Source: Patescibacteria group bacterium (GTDB taxonomy: Bacteria > Patescibacteriota > Patescibacteriia > SG8-24). Taken from it: a stretch of DNA of 64,000 nt. Positions 4,688 to 53,805 of the stretch are shown piece by piece. The DNA is taken from the NCBI GenBank assembly GCA_041667185.1, contig JBAYFM010000005.1:9285-73284 (forward strand), read 5' to 3'. How positions within the stretch are numbered: position 1 is the first letter of the stretch; every line of letters begins with the position of its first letter. Under the pieces are notes generated by a model. That model searched no databases and was not told the DNA's origin. It worked only from the letters and a program-made list of their open reading frames with translations. A program made the position numbers and the translations under genes.

Positions 4688-4880
4688 CGGGTGGAGTTAG
4701 GGAGAGGTGGAGAGTGCTGAAGTGCGGGAGTGCTGGAGTTTTTATCGGGTCTCCCGCACTCCCCCACTCCTGCACTCTCCCGTTCGTTGAATCGGGGAGA
4801 GACGAAGAGGCGGAGTCAGATAAGCACTCTGACTCCGTCTCTCCCTGACTCCGTCTCTCCCACACTCCCTCACCCCCTCA
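4688..4880. repeat. dispersed composite inverted-repeat element, copy A
   Basis: Module 1 has GGAGTGCTG/GGAGTGCGGGAG arms around a TTTTTATCGGGTCTCCC core. Module 2 has GAGACGGAGTCAG arms. Same family as copies at 33.5, 35.0, 40.9, 42.8, 52.7 and 53.7 kb. Confidence 0.65.
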
Positions 4881-4881
4881 C

Positions 4882-5628
4882 CTACGCCACCCTCGTCAGC
4901 GGCCCGAAATGATGAACGACATCCTTGCGTTCGACGACGATCTCCCAGCCCCGCCGCCGCGCGTGGCGGTAGAGCACCATGTTCGGATTGAAACAGATCG
5001 GCTGCTCCACGAGCTGCAGGAACCGGATGTCGGATTGCGTGTCGCCCACCCCGATCGATCCCTTGAGCGTCAGATCGTTCCGGGCGATGGCGCGGCGCAG
5101 GATGACCGCCTTGTCCGAGATCATGTCCAGGAACAGCGTCGTGCCGGTGAACCGGTTGTTCTTATCCACTTCGTAGATGCGGCCATAGACCTTGTCGAAG
5201 CCGAGCTTGGCGCAGAACGGTTTCAGCACCTCGCGCGGCGAATTGGAGATGGCCAGCAGGAAATAGCCTTTCTTCTTCAGGTCGCGCACGAGGTCGCGGG
5301 TATAGCGGTAGACGCGGTCCTTGTGGAAATCAACCACGCGCTCGGCGACGCGCATGAACACATCGCTGTCCACGCCTTTGATATGACCCTCGAAAGCCTT
5401 GATGACCCCGCCGATGTAATCATCGTAGTGCCCGGTGCGGTCGAGCCAGCGCTGGTAGGGCTTTTCATACATCTTGCGCAGCTTCTTCTTGAAGATGCCG
5501 GCGTGGATCAAAGCCTCGGTGATCTCGATGAGCAGGCTCGATCTGAAGATCGTACCGTCGATGTCGAAGATCGCCACTTTGCGCTGGCCGGAGGCTTTTT
5601 TCGGCTTAACGATGGTCTTTTTAGCCAT
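4882..5628 (-). CDS. HAD-superfamily hydrolase (HAD-IB / phosphoserine phosphatase-like)
   Basis: IFDIDGTI motif I (DxDGT). GVGDTQSD motif IV. Confidence 0.7.
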   Translation of the reverse strand: MAKKTIVKPKKASGQRKVAIFDIDGTIFRSSLLIEITEALIHAGIFKKKLRKMYEKPYQRWLDRTGHYDDYIGGVIKAFEGHIKGVDSDVFMRVAERVVDFHKDRVYRYTRDLVRDLKKKGYFLLAISNSPREVLKPFCAKLGFDKVYGRIYEVDKNNRFTGTTLFLDMISDKAVILRRAIARNDLTLKGSIGVGDTQSDIRFLQLVEQPICFNPNMVLYRHARRRGWEIVVERKDVVHHFGPLTRVA

Positions 5629-25041: not shown

Positions 25042-25179
25042 GCAGCTTGCCACCCGAAGCTTCCGCTCCAGACAGCAGTAGTCCCCCTTCGCTGAAGCTT
25101 CCTCCTCCGCTAAAGCCATGGAGAACAAATCAGGTGACACCCTTCGCCTTCTCACTTCTCGGTGTCAGGAAGCGGAGGG
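25042..25179. repeat. structured inter-tRNA spacer, copy 1 of a duplicated ~140-nt spacer
   Basis: Shares CCACCCGAAGCTTCCGCTCC...CCCCCTTCGCTGAA...CAGGAAGCG(A/G)AGGGTGG with spacer 25265-25424. Contains nested hairpins. Confidence 0.5.
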
Positions 25180-25264: not shown

Positions 25265-25424
25265 TTGCAGCCCGCCGCCCAAATCCTTGGACAGGAGCTC
25301 CCGCCTCGCGGCGGGTATTGGTTTACCACCCGAAGCTTCCGCTCCGAGCAGCATGTCCCCCTTCGCTGAAACTTCGGGGGACCACCCTTCGCTCTCTCAT
25401 TCTTATGGATCAGGAAGCGAAGGG
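25265..25424. repeat. structured inter-tRNA spacer, copy 2
   Basis: Same architecture as 25042-25179. Confidence 0.5.
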
Positions 25425-25500
25425 TGGAGCCGACGACCGGGATTGAACCGGTGACCTTCTCCTTACCATGGAGATGCTCTACCAGCTGAGCTACGTCGGC
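25425..25500 (-). tRNA. tRNA-Thr (anticodon GGT)
   Basis: GCCGACGTAGCTCAGCTGGTAGAGC... anticodon loop ATGGTAA. CCA encoded. Confidence 0.9.
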
Positions 25501-25555
25501 GTATCGCGTATGATTTTTTGATGAACTTCCTGAGCACACCTTATTAGAGATGCTC

Positions 25556-25686
25556 TACGGCGCAGGTCGGTCCGCGGCAGCGGACTGACATTATAGACTA
25601 AAGCGCCGGTGGGCGCCACTTCTCGCCGTATGCCGCCTGGTCCCTGGGCGCAGCCCAGGGCGGCATACCAGCTGAGCTACGTCGGC
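25556..25686 (-). pseudogene. partial 5' copy of tRNA-Thr(GGT), nt 1-32, split in the D-loop by a 98-bp structured insert
   Basis: Minus strand reads GCCGACGTAGCTCAGCTGGTA, then a 98-nt insert (25568-25665) flanked by TA, then GTAGAGCATCTCT. The ~35-bp upstream region is also duplicated at 25687-25720. Confidence 0.5.
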
Positions 25687-25758
25687 GTATCGCGTATTAT
25701 TTTTTGATGAACTTCCTGGGGTTGTGTACAACTTTTTGACGACCGAGAAATATTATAC

Positions 25759-26664
25759 CTATTTTCCTTTTTTGGGAATTTTTAAGACGGTGCCAACCGG
25801 CATCGCCGCTATCCTGTCGTATAAAGACTGGAGCTTCTGGTTGTCGGGGTTCGCCGCCTTAAGCTGACCGAACACCTCCATCGCCCTGCCTTTATCGCCT
25901 ACCAGTATACACGCCTCTATTAACAAATCAAGATGTTTGGGGTTCGCCGGCTCATGGGCCACCGCGCCCTCAAGCGCCTCCCTGGCCCCGGCCACATCCC
26001 CCATCGCCCGGCAGGCGTTGCTCAGGTCGAAATAACTTTTGGCGATCTCGGCCTGGACGGCCGGCGGCGCCGAACACGGAACGGTCCGGCGATGATGATC
26101 GGCGGCGTGTCCGTGGGCGGATTGATCCTTCACGCTGAGCCGCACCAGAAATTCGAACGTCTCCTTGGCCTGGGAATAATTCTTGGCCTCCAGATAGATC
26201 TGTCCGAGCCCGCGGTAGGCTTCGGCGTTGCGCTGGTCGAGCTTGATAGCCTCCAGATATTTCTTCTCAGCCTCCGGCGTCTTGCCGAGCACCAGGAGTT
26301 CGGACGCCTCGGCGATCAGTTGGGCGGCGGACTCGCGGACTTCGGCCACGGTCGGAGTCGGCGGCACTGTAGCCGGTTCCTGGAATTTCTTCTCGAGCTG
26401 CAGCAGCCGGCGATATTGCGCCCGGAAACCGGCGCGGATCCGGCCGAAGAACGGTCCCACACGATCGCAGAACCGGCGCCAGGAGTCGATCGACATGCGG
26501 CCGACCCGTTCATGGATGATCTCTTTCTTCTTTTTATTCTCGCGCTCCTTGGGCAGCGTCGCTGTGTCGATGAGCGTCAGCTGCGGGAACTTGCGGGCCA
26601 GGATCACGGCAACGCCAAGCAAGCTGCCGATGACGATGCTGAAAGCCACGAGATAGAAAGTCAT
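25759..26664 (-). CDS. membrane-anchored TPR-repeat protein
   Basis: N-terminal TM (MTFYLVAFSIVIGSLLGVAVIL). TPR-like AEAYRGLGQIYLEAKNYSQAKETFEFL repeats. Confidence 0.65.
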   Translation of the reverse strand: MTFYLVAFSIVIGSLLGVAVILARKFPQLTLIDTATLPKERENKKKKEIIHERVGRMSIDSWRRFCDRVGPFFGRIRAGFRAQYRRLLQLEKKFQEPATVPPTPTVAEVRESAAQLIAEASELLVLGKTPEAEKKYLEAIKLDQRNAEAYRGLGQIYLEAKNYSQAKETFEFLVRLSVKDQSAHGHAADHHRRTVPCSAPPAVQAEIAKSYFDLSNACRAMGDVAGAREALEGAVAHEPANPKHLDLLIEACILVGDKGRAMEVFGQLKAANPDNQKLQSLYDRIAAMPVGTVLKIPKKGK

Positions 26665-33491: not shown

Positions 33492-33537
33492 ATCTTGGCT
33501 CTCCGCAGTATAGCACTGGCCTTTGGCTAATGGCTAT

Positions 33538-33627
33538 TAGGAGAGACGGAGTCAGGAAGAGACGGAGTCAGGGAGTGCTGGAGTGCTGGAGTTTTTGTCG
33601 GGTCTCCCCGACTTCGCAACTTCGCGA
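33538..33627. repeat. dispersed composite inverted-repeat element, copy B (left border of orphan island)
   Basis: GAGACGGAGTCAGG (x2), then GGAGTGCTGGAGTGCTGGAG, then TTTTTGTCGGGTCTCCCCGAC core. Confidence 0.65.
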
Positions 33628-33659
33628 AATTCAAGCTCTTGTCGCATCACCAGCCACGA

Positions 33660-34876: not shown

Positions 34877-34954
34877 GCACGACCGAAGTCTCATGGTTCC
34901 CGCCTCTAAGAGACCCCTGTTCCGTTCTGGAATGGGGGTCTTTTCAATTTAAAG

Positions 34955-35046
34955 AGAGAGTGCGGGAGTGCAGGAGAGACGGAGTTGGGGAGATTTGAGA
35001 ACTTCGTCTCTCCCTGACTCCGTTTCTCCCTGACTCCCCCACTCCT
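34955..35046. repeat. dispersed composite inverted-repeat element, copy C (right border of orphan island)
   Basis: GAGTGCGGGAGTGCAGGAGAGACGGAGTTGGGGAG ... CTCCCTGACTCCGTTTCTCCCTGACTCCCCCACTCC. Confidence 0.65.
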
Positions 35047-35049
35047 AAA

Positions 35050-35080
35050 AAGTGTCAGCCTCTTGACACTATTTTTTATA
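35050..35080 (+). terminator. candidate terminator
   Basis: AGTGTCAGCCTCTTGACACT hairpin followed by ATTTTTTA. Confidence 0.4.
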
Positions 35081-38872: not shown

Positions 38873-39448
38873 CTATTTCGAACGCAGCGACAATTCGTAA
38901 AGCACCTCTTCGGCGCGGCGCAGGTTATTCTTGGCCTGATCGAACTTGTTGCGGAGATAACCGCCGAGGTCCATGTCCAAAAGTTCCGCCACGATCGCCT
39001 CCATGAGTTCTTTGATGCGTTTGACCTCGTCGAGCTTGCCCTCGGTCGCGAGCCGCACCTGGCGGCGCTGCAGTTCGCCGGTGAGATCCGACAATCCGGA
39101 AAGATAGATCTCGTAATCGACGTTCTCGATCTCGACGCGGCCGACATCGCCCGTGGCGAGATAGCGGCGATACAATTCGGCCTCGACGAACTCTTCGAGC
39201 GCCGCCCGGAACGATCCCTCGGCCGAGACGTCGAGTTGCGAACCGACCGCTTTCACGATCGCAGCCAGGCCGGAACCGGCCTCTTCGAGCAGTTTGGCCG
39301 CGGCCGCCGCATCGTCGCGATGCAACGCGAAGATGGCGCGCTTCGACGCCGACAGGGCGTCGCCGGACGATTTGATGACCTCGCGCCGGGACGCTTCGTA
39401 AACAGCGACCTGCGAGCGCACTTCGGAAAGATATTCCCGATCCAACAT
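38873..39448 (-). CDS. hypothetical alpha-helical protein
   Basis: 191 aa. No confidently recognisable family. Confidence 0.45.
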   Translation of the reverse strand: MLDREYLSEVRSQVAVYEASRREVIKSSGDALSASKRAIFALHRDDAAAAAKLLEEAGSGLAAIVKAVGSQLDVSAEGSFRAALEEFVEAELYRRYLATGDVGRVEIENVDYEIYLSGLSDLTGELQRRQVRLATEGKLDEVKRIKELMEAIVAELLDMDLGGYLRNKFDQAKNNLRRAEEVLYELSLRSK

Positions 39449-40868: not shown

Positions 40869-40887
40869 GGTTTCAGCTTAACATAAT

Positions 40888-40962
40888 TTGGGAGAGTGCT
40901 GGAGTGCGGGAGAGACGGAGTCACGTCGTTCGCGAACGACGTGACGGAGTCATGGAATTCTG
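40888..40962. repeat. dispersed composite inverted-repeat element, copy D
   Basis: GGAGAGTGCTGGAGTGCGGGAGAGACGGAGTC plus perfect 26-nt palindrome GTCACGTCGTTCGCGAACGACGTGAC. Confidence 0.6.
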
Positions 40963-42546: not shown

Positions 42547-42653
42547 GAAAGCCTCCTTGTTTTTGGATTTTTAAGGAACTTTTAGGCGGAAAAGGGCCGA
42601 TTTACCCCTTACCGCAACATACTATTTAAGCACAAAATAGGCCGTTTGTCAAT

Positions 42654-43036
42654 GAGGGGAGTGCGGGAGAGACGGAGTTGGGAAGAGACGGAGTCAGGGA
42701 GTGCTGGAGTGCGGGAGAAATGGAGTTATCAAAACTCCCCCACTCCTCCACTCCCGCACTCTCCCATTCATTGGATCAGAGAGATGCGGAGAGACGGAGA
42801 TACGGAGTGCTGGAGTACTGAAGTGCTGGAGAGACGGAGTCACGTCGCTCGCGAACGACGTGGCGGAGTGCTGGAGTACTGGAGTTCTGGAGAGACGGAG
42901 TATCAAAACTCCCCCACTCCTCCACTCCCGCACTCTCCCGTTCAGTGGATCAGAGAGATGCGGAGATACGGAGTACTGGAGTACTGAGATGCTGGAGAGA
43001 CGGAGTCACGTCGCTCGCGAACGACGTGACGGGGTT
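42654..43036. repeat. dispersed composite inverted-repeat element, copy E (two tandem ~175-bp units)
   Basis: Each unit has module-1 arms around an ATCAAAACTCCCCCACTCC core, module 2, and palindrome GTCACGTCGCTCGCGAACGACGTG(A/G)C. Confidence 0.7.
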
Positions 43037-43053
43037 GCCAGGAACCGGGGAAC

Positions 43054-45688: not shown

Positions 45689-46309
45689 TTAAACGCCGGA
45701 CTTGCGAACGACGAGAAACCGACCGAAACTGTCATCAAAACATTTCCAACGTTGCTCGGAACTGAGTTTCAGCTGGCGACAGCAGTGGTTCGACCACAGA
45801 TACGGGACATGACAATGACCGCACGGATCCACCCACGAGGAGCCGAGGGCGAAGATGTGACCTTCACCATTCCATTTTATCCTGGCATAAGCGAGCAACT
45901 CGACAAGGGTCGCACTGCGATAACCATTCTGGTCGATGATGCGACGCAGATCGGCGGTGGACGTATATCGAAGGTCATCGTGGTCGCGAATGTTCAAGAC
46001 TACGATGTCCGATATGTCCGCAACCGGATCGGAGAGCGAAAAATTACGCTCATTGATGTCGGGGTCGACGATGTAACGAAAAGCCAAGTCGGCGGCCACC
46101 TGGGCAAAGGTGACTGTCTCTTTTACCTCGGCGGCGCCGATAACGAGCTTGGCCATCTTCCGGATGGTCGATCGGCCAGCACCCTTGTTGAGGGCGAACA
46201 GATGTTCGTCACTGCCGCCCAGATCAATGATGTCGGTGCGAAGCTTCAGGATGAGATCACCGATGAAACCCGCTCCCGCCACGATCGTCGAATCGTTCTT
46301 CTTTCCCAT
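45689..46309 (-). CDS. hypothetical protein with Cys/His-rich C-terminus
   Basis: SD GGAGTAGGAG. ...WVDPCGHCHVPYLWSNHCC... No recognisable family. Confidence 0.5.
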   Translation of the reverse strand: MGKKNDSTIVAGAGFIGDLILKLRTDIIDLGGSDEHLFALNKGAGRSTIRKMAKLVIGAAEVKETVTFAQVAADLAFRYIVDPDINERNFSLSDPVADISDIVVLNIRDHDDLRYTSTADLRRIIDQNGYRSATLVELLAYARIKWNGEGHIFALGSSWVDPCGHCHVPYLWSNHCCRQLKLSSEQRWKCFDDSFGRFLVVRKSGV

Positions 46310-46410: not shown

Positions 46411-46675
46411 GGCGGCTTTGTCAAAAGAAATAGCCCCATCCCTGCGGGATGAGGCTCTTTCTTATGGTGGGTCGGCTGCCGGGGATTCCTCCTCCCCCAC
46501 CGCTCGCTACTTGGGGCCCCTGCCCCAAGTGCTCACGGCTCCTCCGGAGCCCGCCGCTCCGCAACGCACCATACTAGGTGCGTTGGCGGAGTCGGCTTCG
46601 AATCCCAGACGACCCTGCGCAAAAGAAATAGCCCCATCCCTGCGGGATGAGGCTCTTTCTTATGGTGGGTCGGCT
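46411..46675. repeat. att-like 57/58-bp direct repeats (tRNA-Lys 3' end plus terminator) flanking a 150-bp structured segment
   Basis: 46411-46467 and 46618-46675 are near-identical (CAAAAGAAATAGCCCCATCCCTGCGGGATGAGGCTCTTTCTTATGGTGGGTCGGCTG). The intervening DNA has four or more GC hairpins. Confidence 0.6.
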
Positions 46676-46738
46676 GGGATTCGAACCCAGGACCATCAGC
46701 TTAAAAGGCTGTTGCTCTACCAGACTGAGCTACCGACC
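46662..46738 (-). tRNA. tRNA-Lys (anticodon TTT)
   Basis: GGGTCGGTAGCTCAGTCTGGTAGAGC... anticodon loop CTTTTAA. T-loop GGTTCGAATCC. CCA encoded. Confidence 0.9.
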
Positions 46739-46777
46739 CATAACGAACTGGTTGTTGTCGAACTAACCGTCTTTATT

Positions 46778-47037
46778 TGTTGCTCTACGACGCAGTTCAG
46801 TCGCTCTGCGACTGAACATTACAGATGCGCGGCTAAGGCCGCAACTCATCGTCGCAAGCCGTACTATCGGACGAACGGAGTCGCCGCGGCGGCGAAGTTC
46901 TGTTCGGCGGCTTACGACGCAGTTCAGTCGCTCTGCGACTGAACATTACAGATGCGCGGCTAAGGCCGCAACTCATCGTCGCAAGCCAGCATTAAAGTCC
47001 ATCTTCTTTCAGAATCAAGCTGGCTTACCAGACTGAG
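46778..47037 (-). pseudogene. partial 5' copy of tRNA-Lys split at the D-loop TA by a 229-bp insert
   Basis: Minus strand reads GGGTCGGTAGCTCAGTCTGGTA (47016-47037), then an insert (46787-47015), then TAGAGCAAC (46778-46786). TA is duplicated at both junctions. Confidence 0.45.
46787..46983. repeat. two 73-bp direct repeats, each folding into a two-hairpin dumbbell, separated by 51 bp
   Basis: Copies 46787-46859 and 46911-46983 are identical (CGACGCAGTTCAGTCGCTCTGCGACTGAAC...GCGCGGCTAAGGCCGC...CGTCGCAAGCC). Confidence 0.6.
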
Positions 47038-47223
47038 CTACCGACCCATGACGACGCTGTTTTTGATTTTGTCCGTCTCACATCAAACCGCTTGCCACCC
47101 GCAGATCCGCAGGAGTGGAGGGTGGGGCTACCGACCTATAACGAACGAACTTTATCGAAAACGCGGAGGAAGCGTAACAAAATCCCCCGCGTTCATCAAC
47201 TCTCTTCCAAAACGCCTACCGAT

Positions 47224-52488: not shown

Positions 52489-52597
52489 GGTCTGCCGCCT
52501 TTCTGGGCTTCGTGGCCTGAGATTGCGTAAGGTCCGACTCCGGCGAGGATCGCCAGAGAACCAAAAAAGCTAGCAAAAAATTTCAGTGTTGTCAAGG

Positions 52598-52836
52598 GGG
52601 GTGAGGATGCAGAAGTGCTGGAGTGCGGGAGTTCGGAAGTGCGGGAGTACAGGAGTTTTTGTCGGGTCTCCCCGACTCCAGAACTTCAGTACTCCAGGAC
52701 AGGTGCCTGACACCGAAGGACTCAGGAGTGCGGGAGTTCGGAAGTGCTGAAGTGCTGGAGTTCGTGTCTGGTCTAACTGACTCCAGCTCTCCAGCACTCC
52801 AGAACTTCAGAACTTCAGATTCCCGTTCATAAAGAA
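52598..52836. repeat. dispersed composite inverted-repeat element, copy F
   Basis: GGAGTGCGGGAGTTCGGAAGTGCGGGAG...GGAGTTTTTGTCGGGTCTCCCCGACTCC core ... CCCGTTCATAAAGAAAAGCGCC terminus. Confidence 0.65.
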
Positions 52837-53633: not shown

Positions 53634-53667
53634 TTATTATCATTACAATGCTGTTTGGTCAATTATC

Positions 53668-53805
53668 GGAGTACGGGAGTGCTGAAGTACTGGAGGACTG
53701 AAGTGCTGAAGTGCTGGAGTGCTGGAGTCGGGGAGACCAGACAAAAACTCCTGTACTCCCTCACTCCAGTACTCCCCCACTCCCGCACTCTCCCGTTCAT
53801 AAAAA
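53668..53805. repeat. dispersed composite inverted-repeat element, copy G (inverted relative to F)
   Basis: GGAGTCGGGGAGACCAGACAAAAACTCC is the reverse complement of the F core. The terminus CCCGTTCATAAAAAAGCGCC overlaps the murG stop codon. Confidence 0.65.

Follow-up and report, generated by a model that had tools for sequence, protein, structure and literature searches.

The window analyzed here, the whole of a 64,000-nt stretch of DNA from a Patescibacteria (CPR) genome, is GC-rich (approximately 60%), and all of the genes scanned in it are housekeeping genes. Its triose-phosphate isomerase (TIM) matches a protein of a Patescibacteria group bacterium with 100% identity, and the next named relatives of the enzyme belong to Uhrbacteria and Parcubacteria. 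ARAGORN places all four of the tRNA genes relevant here, Thr(GGT), Tyr, Thr(TGT), and Lys(UUU), on the - strand. GC skew of the + strand is negative almost throughout the window, which suggests that the - strand, carrying four of the five tRNAs (Trp is on the + strand), is the leading strand. Upstream of tRNA-Thr(GGT) and of tRNA-Lys(UUU) lies a second, partial copy of the tRNA 5' end, split in the D-loop by a structured insert. The tRNA-Thr(GGT) locus consists of the following features.

25425-25500, - strand: intact tRNA-Thr(GGT), the functional copy (ARAGORN; Rfam tRNA 68.5 bits)
25501-25546, - strand: leader of the intact tRNA-Thr, its proximal 32 nt (25501-25532) duplicated upstream (repeat D16)
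25533-25546: filler at the duplication junction, the distal 14 nt of this leader (sense TAATAAGGTGTGCT)
25547-25558, - strand: tRNA-Thr nt 19-30 (GAGATGCTCTAC), 3' part of the truncated copy (12/12 bases match)
25559-25665, + strand: structured element, Thr copy (107 nt, with a TAC on either side)
25666-25718, - strand: 5' part of the truncated copy, made up of tRNA-Thr nt 1-21 and 32 leader nt (52/53 versus 25480-25532)

The direct repeat at this locus measures 53 nt (32 nt of leader plus tRNA nt 1-21), with its copies 186 nt apart, and 46 nt separate the fragment from the intact tRNA-Thr. A promoter-like TATAAT of the operon lies further upstream, near 25754-25759, and is kept in the relative L006. 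The preliminary description of this DNA had recognized the tandem copy upstream of the intact gene, but it took the copy to comprise about 35 bp of leader and tRNA nt 1-32, where we find 32 nt and nt 1-30. It also gave the insert as 98 bp, which becomes 107 nt (25559-25665), and the long perfect hairpin it reported there is indeed present, with GTATGCCGCC at 25628-25637 pairing with GGCGGCATAC at 25659-25668. Similarity of the 14-nt filler to the upstream leader was not significant (p 0.25). On the 3' side, structured spacers of about 110-160 nt run from the CCA ends of tRNA-Thr(GGT) and tRNA-Tyr (25042-25179 and 25265-25424, - strand) and carry the motifs CCACCCTTCGCTTCC...GCGAAGGGTG, TCCCCCGAAG...CGAAGGGGGA, and GGAAGCTTCGGGTGG; such spacers are found in the relative L008 (6670-6777 and 6854-6980) and are absent in L009, where the tRNAs abut.

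The tRNA-Lys(UUU) locus repeats this arrangement with 2 inserted units.

46663-46739, - strand: intact tRNA-Lys(UUU) (ARAGORN; Rfam tRNA 74 bits)
46740-46777, - strand: leader of the intact tRNA-Lys, made up of a 15-nt filler (sense AATAAAGACGGTTAG) and a 23-nt copy of the ancestral flank/leader
46778-46788, - strand: tRNA-Lys nt 20-30 fragment (11/11 bases match)
46789-46915, + strand: unit a, dumbbell P1-P3 (46786-46860, including the leading TAC) and hairpin P4a, ending in GGCGGCTTAC
46916-47028, + strand: unit b, dumbbell (46913-46987) and hairpin P4b, ending in GCTGGCTTAC
47026-47047, - strand: tRNA-Lys nt 1-22 fragment, 5' part of the split copy (22/22 bases match)
47048-47136, - strand: segment B and an extra tRNA stub, absent from the relatives L005 and L101
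47137-47225, - strand: ancestral upstream flank of the tRNA-Lys unit, probable promoter region, kept in L005 (92%) and L101

The whole Lys insert spans 237 nt (46789-47025), and its two 75-nt repeats (46786-46860 and 46913-46987) are 100% identical; the distance from the fragment to the intact tRNA-Lys is 38 nt. This is the arrangement that had been reported as a 229-bp insert with two 73-bp dumbbell repeats between tRNA nt 1-21 and nt 20-29, correct in outline with the numbers now revised (nt 1-22 and nt 20-30 for the tRNA pieces). By alignment, unit a (repeat D9) is absent from L005, while unit b is the ortholog of the single unit found there. Segment B, at 79 nt, consists of a leader-like 3' half and a hairpin CCACCC...GGGTGG, and is followed by the extra stub, tRNA-Lys nt 2-11, at 47127-47136. 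The 23-nt copy in the leader resembles the flank at 47137-47165 (p 0.009; the comparison was also made with L101 and L005).

The 3' side of tRNA-Lys holds further structures. Directly after the tRNA-Lys terminator lies a candidate tRNA-like RNA of 151 nt (46465-46615, - strand) with its own terminator at 46422-46464. Its 5' GGGUCGUC pairs with an apparent partial 3' copy of tRNA-Lys (...GCCGACCC-ACCA), forming a stem that encloses four hairpins (MFE -93.5 kcal/mol, z -6.4), and its last 14 nt together with the terminator make up a 57-nt perfect repeat with the tRNA-Lys end. The candidate shows compensatory changes in L005, its 3' half is kept in the distant L103, and it has no Rfam match. Its 5' motif UGGGAUUCGAAG recalls the tRNA-like domain of tmRNA. 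Just beyond the terminator there is also a 19-nt inverted copy of tRNA-Lys nt 55-73 (46597-46615 versus 46667-46685). [quoted passage not shown] L005 carries it unchanged (19/19), and L101 has a more diverged version. The adjoining protein gene (45689-46309, - strand) encodes 206 aa without a Pfam domain, and its homologs on other CPR contigs (L092, L093, and L102) have as neighbors either a reverse transcriptase together with a small bAvd-like gene or a large serine recombinase. These neighbors suggest a link of the protein to diversity-generating retroelements or mobile elements; neither a reverse transcriptase nor a template/variable repeat pair was seen in the window.

The preliminary description had allowed for a misassembled region. 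The Thr locus is identical in the contigs L001 and L002 and the Lys locus in L089 and L090, so that both are reproduced base-for-base by four longer contigs from two other samples and assemblers. Since these independent assemblies are identical, a misassembly private to the window is ruled out. Repeat collapse or chimerism as the source of the arrangement would fit the behavior of two short-read contigs (L003 and L004) that stop exactly at GCTCAGCTGG, the branch point of the repeat paths, but the four longer contigs argue against such an artifact, as does L005, which has the same architecture with sequence differences, and we consider its probability negligible. The D-loop-split tRNA fragments with structured inserts are confirmed as real and reproducible.

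At both loci the split falls after G19-T20-A21 of the D-loop and the insert has the same orientation, in agreement with the earlier observation that the position is identical in two tRNA species. The trinucleotide TAC, which is GTA of the D-loop, stands on both sides of every junction, including the junction between the two Lys units (GGCTTAC/GACGCAG). The TA noted previously at both junctions is part of this TAC, and the shared sequence is 3 nt rather than a clean TA. Both tRNAs have GTAGAGCA in common, and the match of each fragment to its cognate tRNA goes further, by TCTC in Thr and by ACA in Lys; since the flank matches are cognate-specific beyond GTAGAGCA and lie at fixed positions, they are not due to chance and represent genuine cognate fragments. 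In both fragments nt 30 is the last nucleotide of the tRNA, and a filler of about 15 nt comes next (TAATAAGGTGTGCT in Thr, AATAAAGACGGTTAG in Lys of the window, and GTAGAGAGACGAGTCC in L005). Tandem duplication of the tRNA 5' end produced the split copies, which are truncated at nt 30 and cannot make a tRNA. Each duplicated 5' copy probably forms one transcription unit with the intact gene. No insert occupies the intact GCTCTACC sites, of which three lie in tRNAs and three elsewhere, and no copy of the module was found at any other TA site in the window.

The inserts belong to a family of modules of about 110-130 nt that encode no protein and consist of a three-way junction of about 75 nt followed by a variable hairpin. 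TAC is followed by the 5-bp stem P1 (CGRCG with CGYCG), which encloses the 10-bp hairpin P2, the conserved linker CATTAYAGA, and the 5-bp hairpin P3. Hairpin P4 starts one nucleotide past P1, varies between copies, and ends at its 3' side in GGCWTAC, with a base that covaries as ATGCC/GGCAT or AAGCC/GGCTT. In the Thr copy these elements are placed as follows.

25558-25562 / 25624-25628: stem P1
25566-25575 / 25580-25589: hairpin P2
25589-25597: linker (CATTATAGA)
25603-25607 / 25612-25616: hairpin P3
25628-25668: hairpin P4

Modules fold far more stably than shuffled sequences (z -3.2 to -5.9), the Thr insert reaching z -4.4 as RNA and -5.7 as DNA. On the + strand, the Thr P2 contains one G.U pair and P4a contains three; the two strands differ little in overall energy, and GC skew is weakly negative on the + strand. 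No ORF is present in the module. An origin of the module from tRNA sequence was rejected, as no similarity between the two was detectable on either strand (all p > 0.05).

We built a covariance model, R1, from the Lys dumbbells only (window and L005), in which units a and b score 113.6 and 106.7 bits. This model finds the Thr copy with 41.9 bits (E 7e-9) and all 20 of its 20 pairs standard; a scan of 157 kb, covering the window and related loci, gave no match besides the known copies. The Thr and Lys modules are 58% identical on the structural alignment, and seven of the 20 base pairs are changed on both sides with none broken, which 0 of 500 shuffles reached, although the covariation comes from two independent lineages only, in an alignment made to fit the structure, and one register shift could account for five of the P2 changes. 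Judged by these alignments, the Thr and Lys inserts are one family, and the suggestion that they are related as one element is borne out by a model that had seen the Lys copies alone.

The preliminary description had put forward 2 mechanisms. Its favored one, a miniature transposon of the IS630/Tc1 type with TA duplication, draws on the TA contained in TAC at both junctions, and MITEs of the IS630/Tc1-mariner group are likewise small, non-coding, and structured with TA inside the junction repeat. The terminal inverted repeats that such an element should show are absent, since the first 15 nt compared with the reverse complement of the last 15, under every definition of the unit, gave 1-6 matches (p 0.14-0.99). 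In addition, the junction repeat measures 3 nt, insertion is strictly limited to a single target and one orientation and does not use generic TA sites, none of which is otherwise occupied in the window, and Pfam finds no DDE transposase, IS630/Tc1-like or other, in the approximately 50 window ORFs scanned. A transposition of this type is disfavored and very improbable. The second mechanism has no element at all: template switching or aberrant recombination at highly transcribed tRNA genes would have left junctions filled with hairpin sequence. Several local events combining a direct repeat with a structured insert, the filler at the junctions, and the usability of TAC as a 3-nt microhomology are all in keeping with it. 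Repeated aberrant recombination at tRNA 5' halves cannot, however, place homologous, covarying modules of 75 nt at one and the same nucleotide in two different tRNAs 21 kb apart, nor does it account for conservation of the module across species, and we give this explanation little chance of being right.

Relatives of the source organism provide empty and partly filled versions of the same loci. In L006, L008, and L009/L010, whose TIM is 88%, 76%, and 74% identical to that of the window, tRNA-Thr directly follows the same TPR gene with the TATAAT conserved, and neither fragment nor insert is present at tRNA-Thr in these three relatives. At tRNA-Lys, the more distant relative L101 (neighboring protein 61% identical) retains the ancestral state, with a flank ...CGCGTTTTCGATAAAG-GCCGGTCGTCAC that runs into the tRNA without fragment or insert. 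L005 has one split fragment with a single unit, then a second leader and the intact tRNA-Lys, so that the number of module units at tRNA-Lys is 0 in L101, 1 in L005, and 2 in the window. When compared with the empty orthologous loci, the occupied loci are derived. Every copy has a leader that closes with a variant of the ancestral GTCGTCAC, and in the window 23 nt of flank stand duplicated before the intact gene; the extra tRNA 5' ends therefore represent intragenomic tandem duplication and not foreign DNA. No 5' fragment without an insert was seen, so that duplication followed by insertion is a presumed order of events. Synteny is lost in the other relatives representing the tRNA-Lys neighborhood (L092, L093, L102, and L104), and extension of the window flanks through L097-L099 brought no further tRNAs or module copies.

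The origin of the leaders also weighs on the possibility that the two loci are scars of tRNA-integrating islands that displaced the 5' part of the tRNA gene, with the island body since deleted and the module surviving as a conserved att arm. The Islander signature is a regenerated tRNA with a 5' fragment upstream that has the tRNA's orientation; in tRNA genomic islands a tRNA and a cognate end fragment share orientation, and a minority class, 159 of 3919 islands, displaces the 5' fragment upstream (PMC4383910). Known crossover subsites in tRNA genes are the anticodon loop, the T loop, and the junction of T and acceptor stems (PMC4383910), and our fragments end at nt 30, beside the anticodon-centered site; the 3' end of tRNA-Lys lies in the 57-nt perfect repeat (D15). 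Against these points, there is no integrase and no island body of at least 2 kb, the gap from the fragment to the regenerated gene is only 36-46 nt, and the module interrupts the fragment in its D-loop, no known crossover subsite, instead of standing at the fragment end. With both copies' leaders traceable to the ancestral chromosomal leader in L101, we regard island scars as improbable.

Conservation of the module between the window and L005 points in another direction. Unit b is 93-95% identical between the two, compared with 86% for the adjacent CDS and 68% for sequence further on, and none of the seven differences touches P1-P3 or the P4 base (p about 0.008). The module is therefore under structural constraint. 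In the main rival to an insertion element, the module would be a structured RNA functional for the host in the tRNA leader (for example a stable sRNA derived from the leader, a decoy that binds protein, or a module for processing or stability) that arose once and spread between tRNA leaders by duplication or by ectopic gene conversion via D-arm homology rather than by transposition; this reading is unlikely on balance but has a real chance of being correct. The module lies downstream of a conserved operon promoter region, and its sense strand should for that reason be co-transcribed with the tRNA, and we infer its release when RNase P cleaves the downstream tRNA. Conservation above the adjacent CDS with substitutions confined to loops, the covariation, and the presence on the 3' side of tRNA-Lys of another conserved RNA candidate built on a tRNA fragment all argue for a host RNA. 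On the other hand, no Rfam family matches, close relatives manage without the module, no convincing promoter lies inside it, and the exact TAC boundaries and head-to-tail doubling resemble insertion events. The Thr and Lys copies are also only 58% identical, yet the Thr duplication is young (52/53), which indicates that the Thr copy is no recent derivative of the Lys copy. Insertion element and host RNA would be compatible readings if an element had been domesticated.

A sigma-70 promoter within the module was considered and rejected, as the sense linker reads TATAAT in Thr and TGTAAT in Lys but has no -35 element and a promoter scan finds no site. Comparison with Rfam at gathering and permissive thresholds (E up to 10) returned only chance-level matches of 12-20 bits and no intron or ribozyme. 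Weak Rfam matches to C/D-box snoRNAs were discarded after a hand check, since the C and D boxes are not kept in the Thr copy, and no core motifs of hammerhead, twister, or group I/II introns were recognizable by eye.

Known copies of the module total four, at two kinds of locus, with three of them in the 64-kb window. A strict pattern had no match in reference genomes (GTDB, one per species), and a relaxed pattern gave 2 chance matches there, in Acidobacteria, without the structure. The metagenome pattern scan recovered L005 only. Viral contigs yielded 78 chance matches, none with the hairpin, and no match to the exact junction sequences, while phage and plasmid collections had no match. At the sequence level, the family appears confined to a narrow CPR lineage. 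Among the approximately 50 window ORFs scanned, Pfam detects no transposase, integrase, or reverse transcriptase domain, and no Y1/HUH transposase, TnpA, or RAYT was found in the window. Our literature search found no description of D-loop-split bacterial tRNA fragments, and the module family is previously undescribed. A separate and abundant repeat family in the window consists of 8-nt periodic intergenic arrays (GGAGTGCT, GGAGTGCG, GGAGAGAC, and similar) opposite complementary ACTCC arrays, forming long imperfect inverted repeats around short A/T loops (4700-4890, 33520-33640, 34950-35060, 40880-40960, 42650-43050, 52590-52820, and 53660-53800).

The reading that we tentatively prefer, and that we hold to have a little less than an even chance, is that the module is a non-autonomous element whose insertion is confined to a single site of the conserved D-loop, always in the same orientation. 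It would be tolerated only where the 5' part of the gene is duplicated as a fragment, and it has perhaps been co-opted since. One family, an identical D-loop position and orientation, and derived loci together make a small element aimed at the D-loop a reasonable interpretation, and to that extent the mobile or recombinogenic element of the preliminary description is upheld while its Tc1/IS630 mechanism is not. The truncation at nt 30, the structural constraint, and the tRNA-fragment construct on the 3' side of tRNA-Lys had escaped that account. The element would recognize a nearly universal D-arm sequence (GCTCTAC/C antisense, TGGTA/GAGC sense, with the slash marking the joint) and would be joined through a 3-nt core, TAC/GTA. 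Ending in TAC, it would regenerate its own target, which would explain why two units stand head to tail at tRNA-Lys. A CPR genome is expected to have a single copy of each tRNA gene; insertion into the only functional gene would be lethal, and insertions would survive only in duplicated 5' fragments. This would explain why every copy lies in a truncated fragment beside an intact gene. The catalyst would act in trans from outside the window, and the enzymes that would fit best are of the kind that reads hairpins in single-stranded DNA (HUH, IS200/IS605-like) or short-core recombinases (IS110-like). After insertion, the module would be kept under structural constraint and may also serve the host in the tRNA leader transcript.

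Several observations count against an insertion element. No mobilizing enzyme was found among the approximately 50 window ORFs scanned, and only four copies are known, with none in reference genomes, viral contigs, phages, or plasmids. The absence of any 5' fragment without an insert also counts here. The greater conservation of the module than of the adjacent CDS between the window and L005 is the pattern of a host-functional RNA, and hairpins P2 and P4 at its ends are unlike each other, which speaks against IS200/IS605. That both fragments end at nt 30 is an odd coincidence that the model does not explain.

In its working, the module is by analogy most like IS200/IS605 single-strand or IS110 core-mediated recombination, a likeness that does not establish membership in either family. 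IS200/IS605 derivatives and REP/RAYT elements, like the module, have neither terminal inverted repeats nor an ORF, rely on hairpins, and insert in one orientation just 3' of a short motif without true target duplication, and tandems are possible; every module unit likewise follows ...YTAC antisense, or ...GGTA sense. The module differs in that similar subterminal palindromes at both ends, read by one TnpA, are wanting (P2, GTTCAGTCGC..., is unrelated to P4 with its base AAGCC/GGCTT), and in its three-way-junction core, tRNA D-loop target, four copies, and lack of a TnpA or RAYT in the window. The module also has CTAC-spacer-hairpin in place of GTAG-hairpin (compare PMC3733652, PMC8266576). REP/RAYT elements have GTAG/CGTC at the foot of a 20-40-nt palindrome and a high copy number, whereas the module reads CTAC-GRCGCAG-hairpin and has 3 copies in 64 kb.

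IS110/IS1111 elements share with the module the lack of inverted repeats, insertion in one orientation into a conserved sequence, and a short core at both junctions. They encode a recombinase and a guide RNA and exceed 1 kb, and we know of no miniature derivatives of them; no such recombinase gene is present in the module or the window. The D-arm position has a further parallel in tRNA introns, which also intervene in the D-arm region of tRNA coding sequence. In archaea and red algae, tRNA introns occupy non-canonical D-loop positions and are removed via bulge-helix-bulge motifs (PMC3978253, PMC3728597). Those introns split functional genes, in contrast to the module, which has a bacterial host and interrupts a copy truncated at nt 30 with the intact gene adjoining.

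The common end at nt 30 hints that duplication and insertion are coupled. The local events that combine a long direct repeat with a structured insert involve repeats of 53, 57, and 75 nt, and together with the nt-30 coincidence they leave room for a single insert-and-duplicate mechanism, in which a miniature tRNA-targeting cassette breaks the tRNA gene in the D-loop and rebuilds an intact copy in the same event. We treat this version as doubtful, with a small chance of being correct. It could proceed by a template switch, or by guide-like use of the cognate tRNA segments flanking the scaffold, and would explain both the nt-30 fragment ends and the approximately 15-nt filler. If true, a protein-less element would have a new means of colonizing essential single-copy tRNA genes with the host remaining alive.

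To our knowledge, bacterial tRNA genes serve as integrase landing sites always on the anticodon or T-arm side and for elements that encode proteins. An ORF-less covarying module of about 110 nt at one D-loop nucleotide of two tRNA species would add a new target subsite, as well as a new class, either a miniature site-specific element or a tRNA-leader RNA. With tRNA genes expected to be single-copy in CPR, any insertion into one must be squared with its essentiality, and the series of 0, 1, and 2 units in relatives offers a system for studying how short tandem duplication shields essential genes from targeted insertion and whether such insertions are later recruited as leader RNAs. A Translin-family protein is encoded at 38873-39448 (- strand; Pfam E 1e-18). 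The eukaryotic translin-TRAX complex degrades pre-tRNA 5' leaders, and the protein could be relevant to the long structured tRNA leaders found here.
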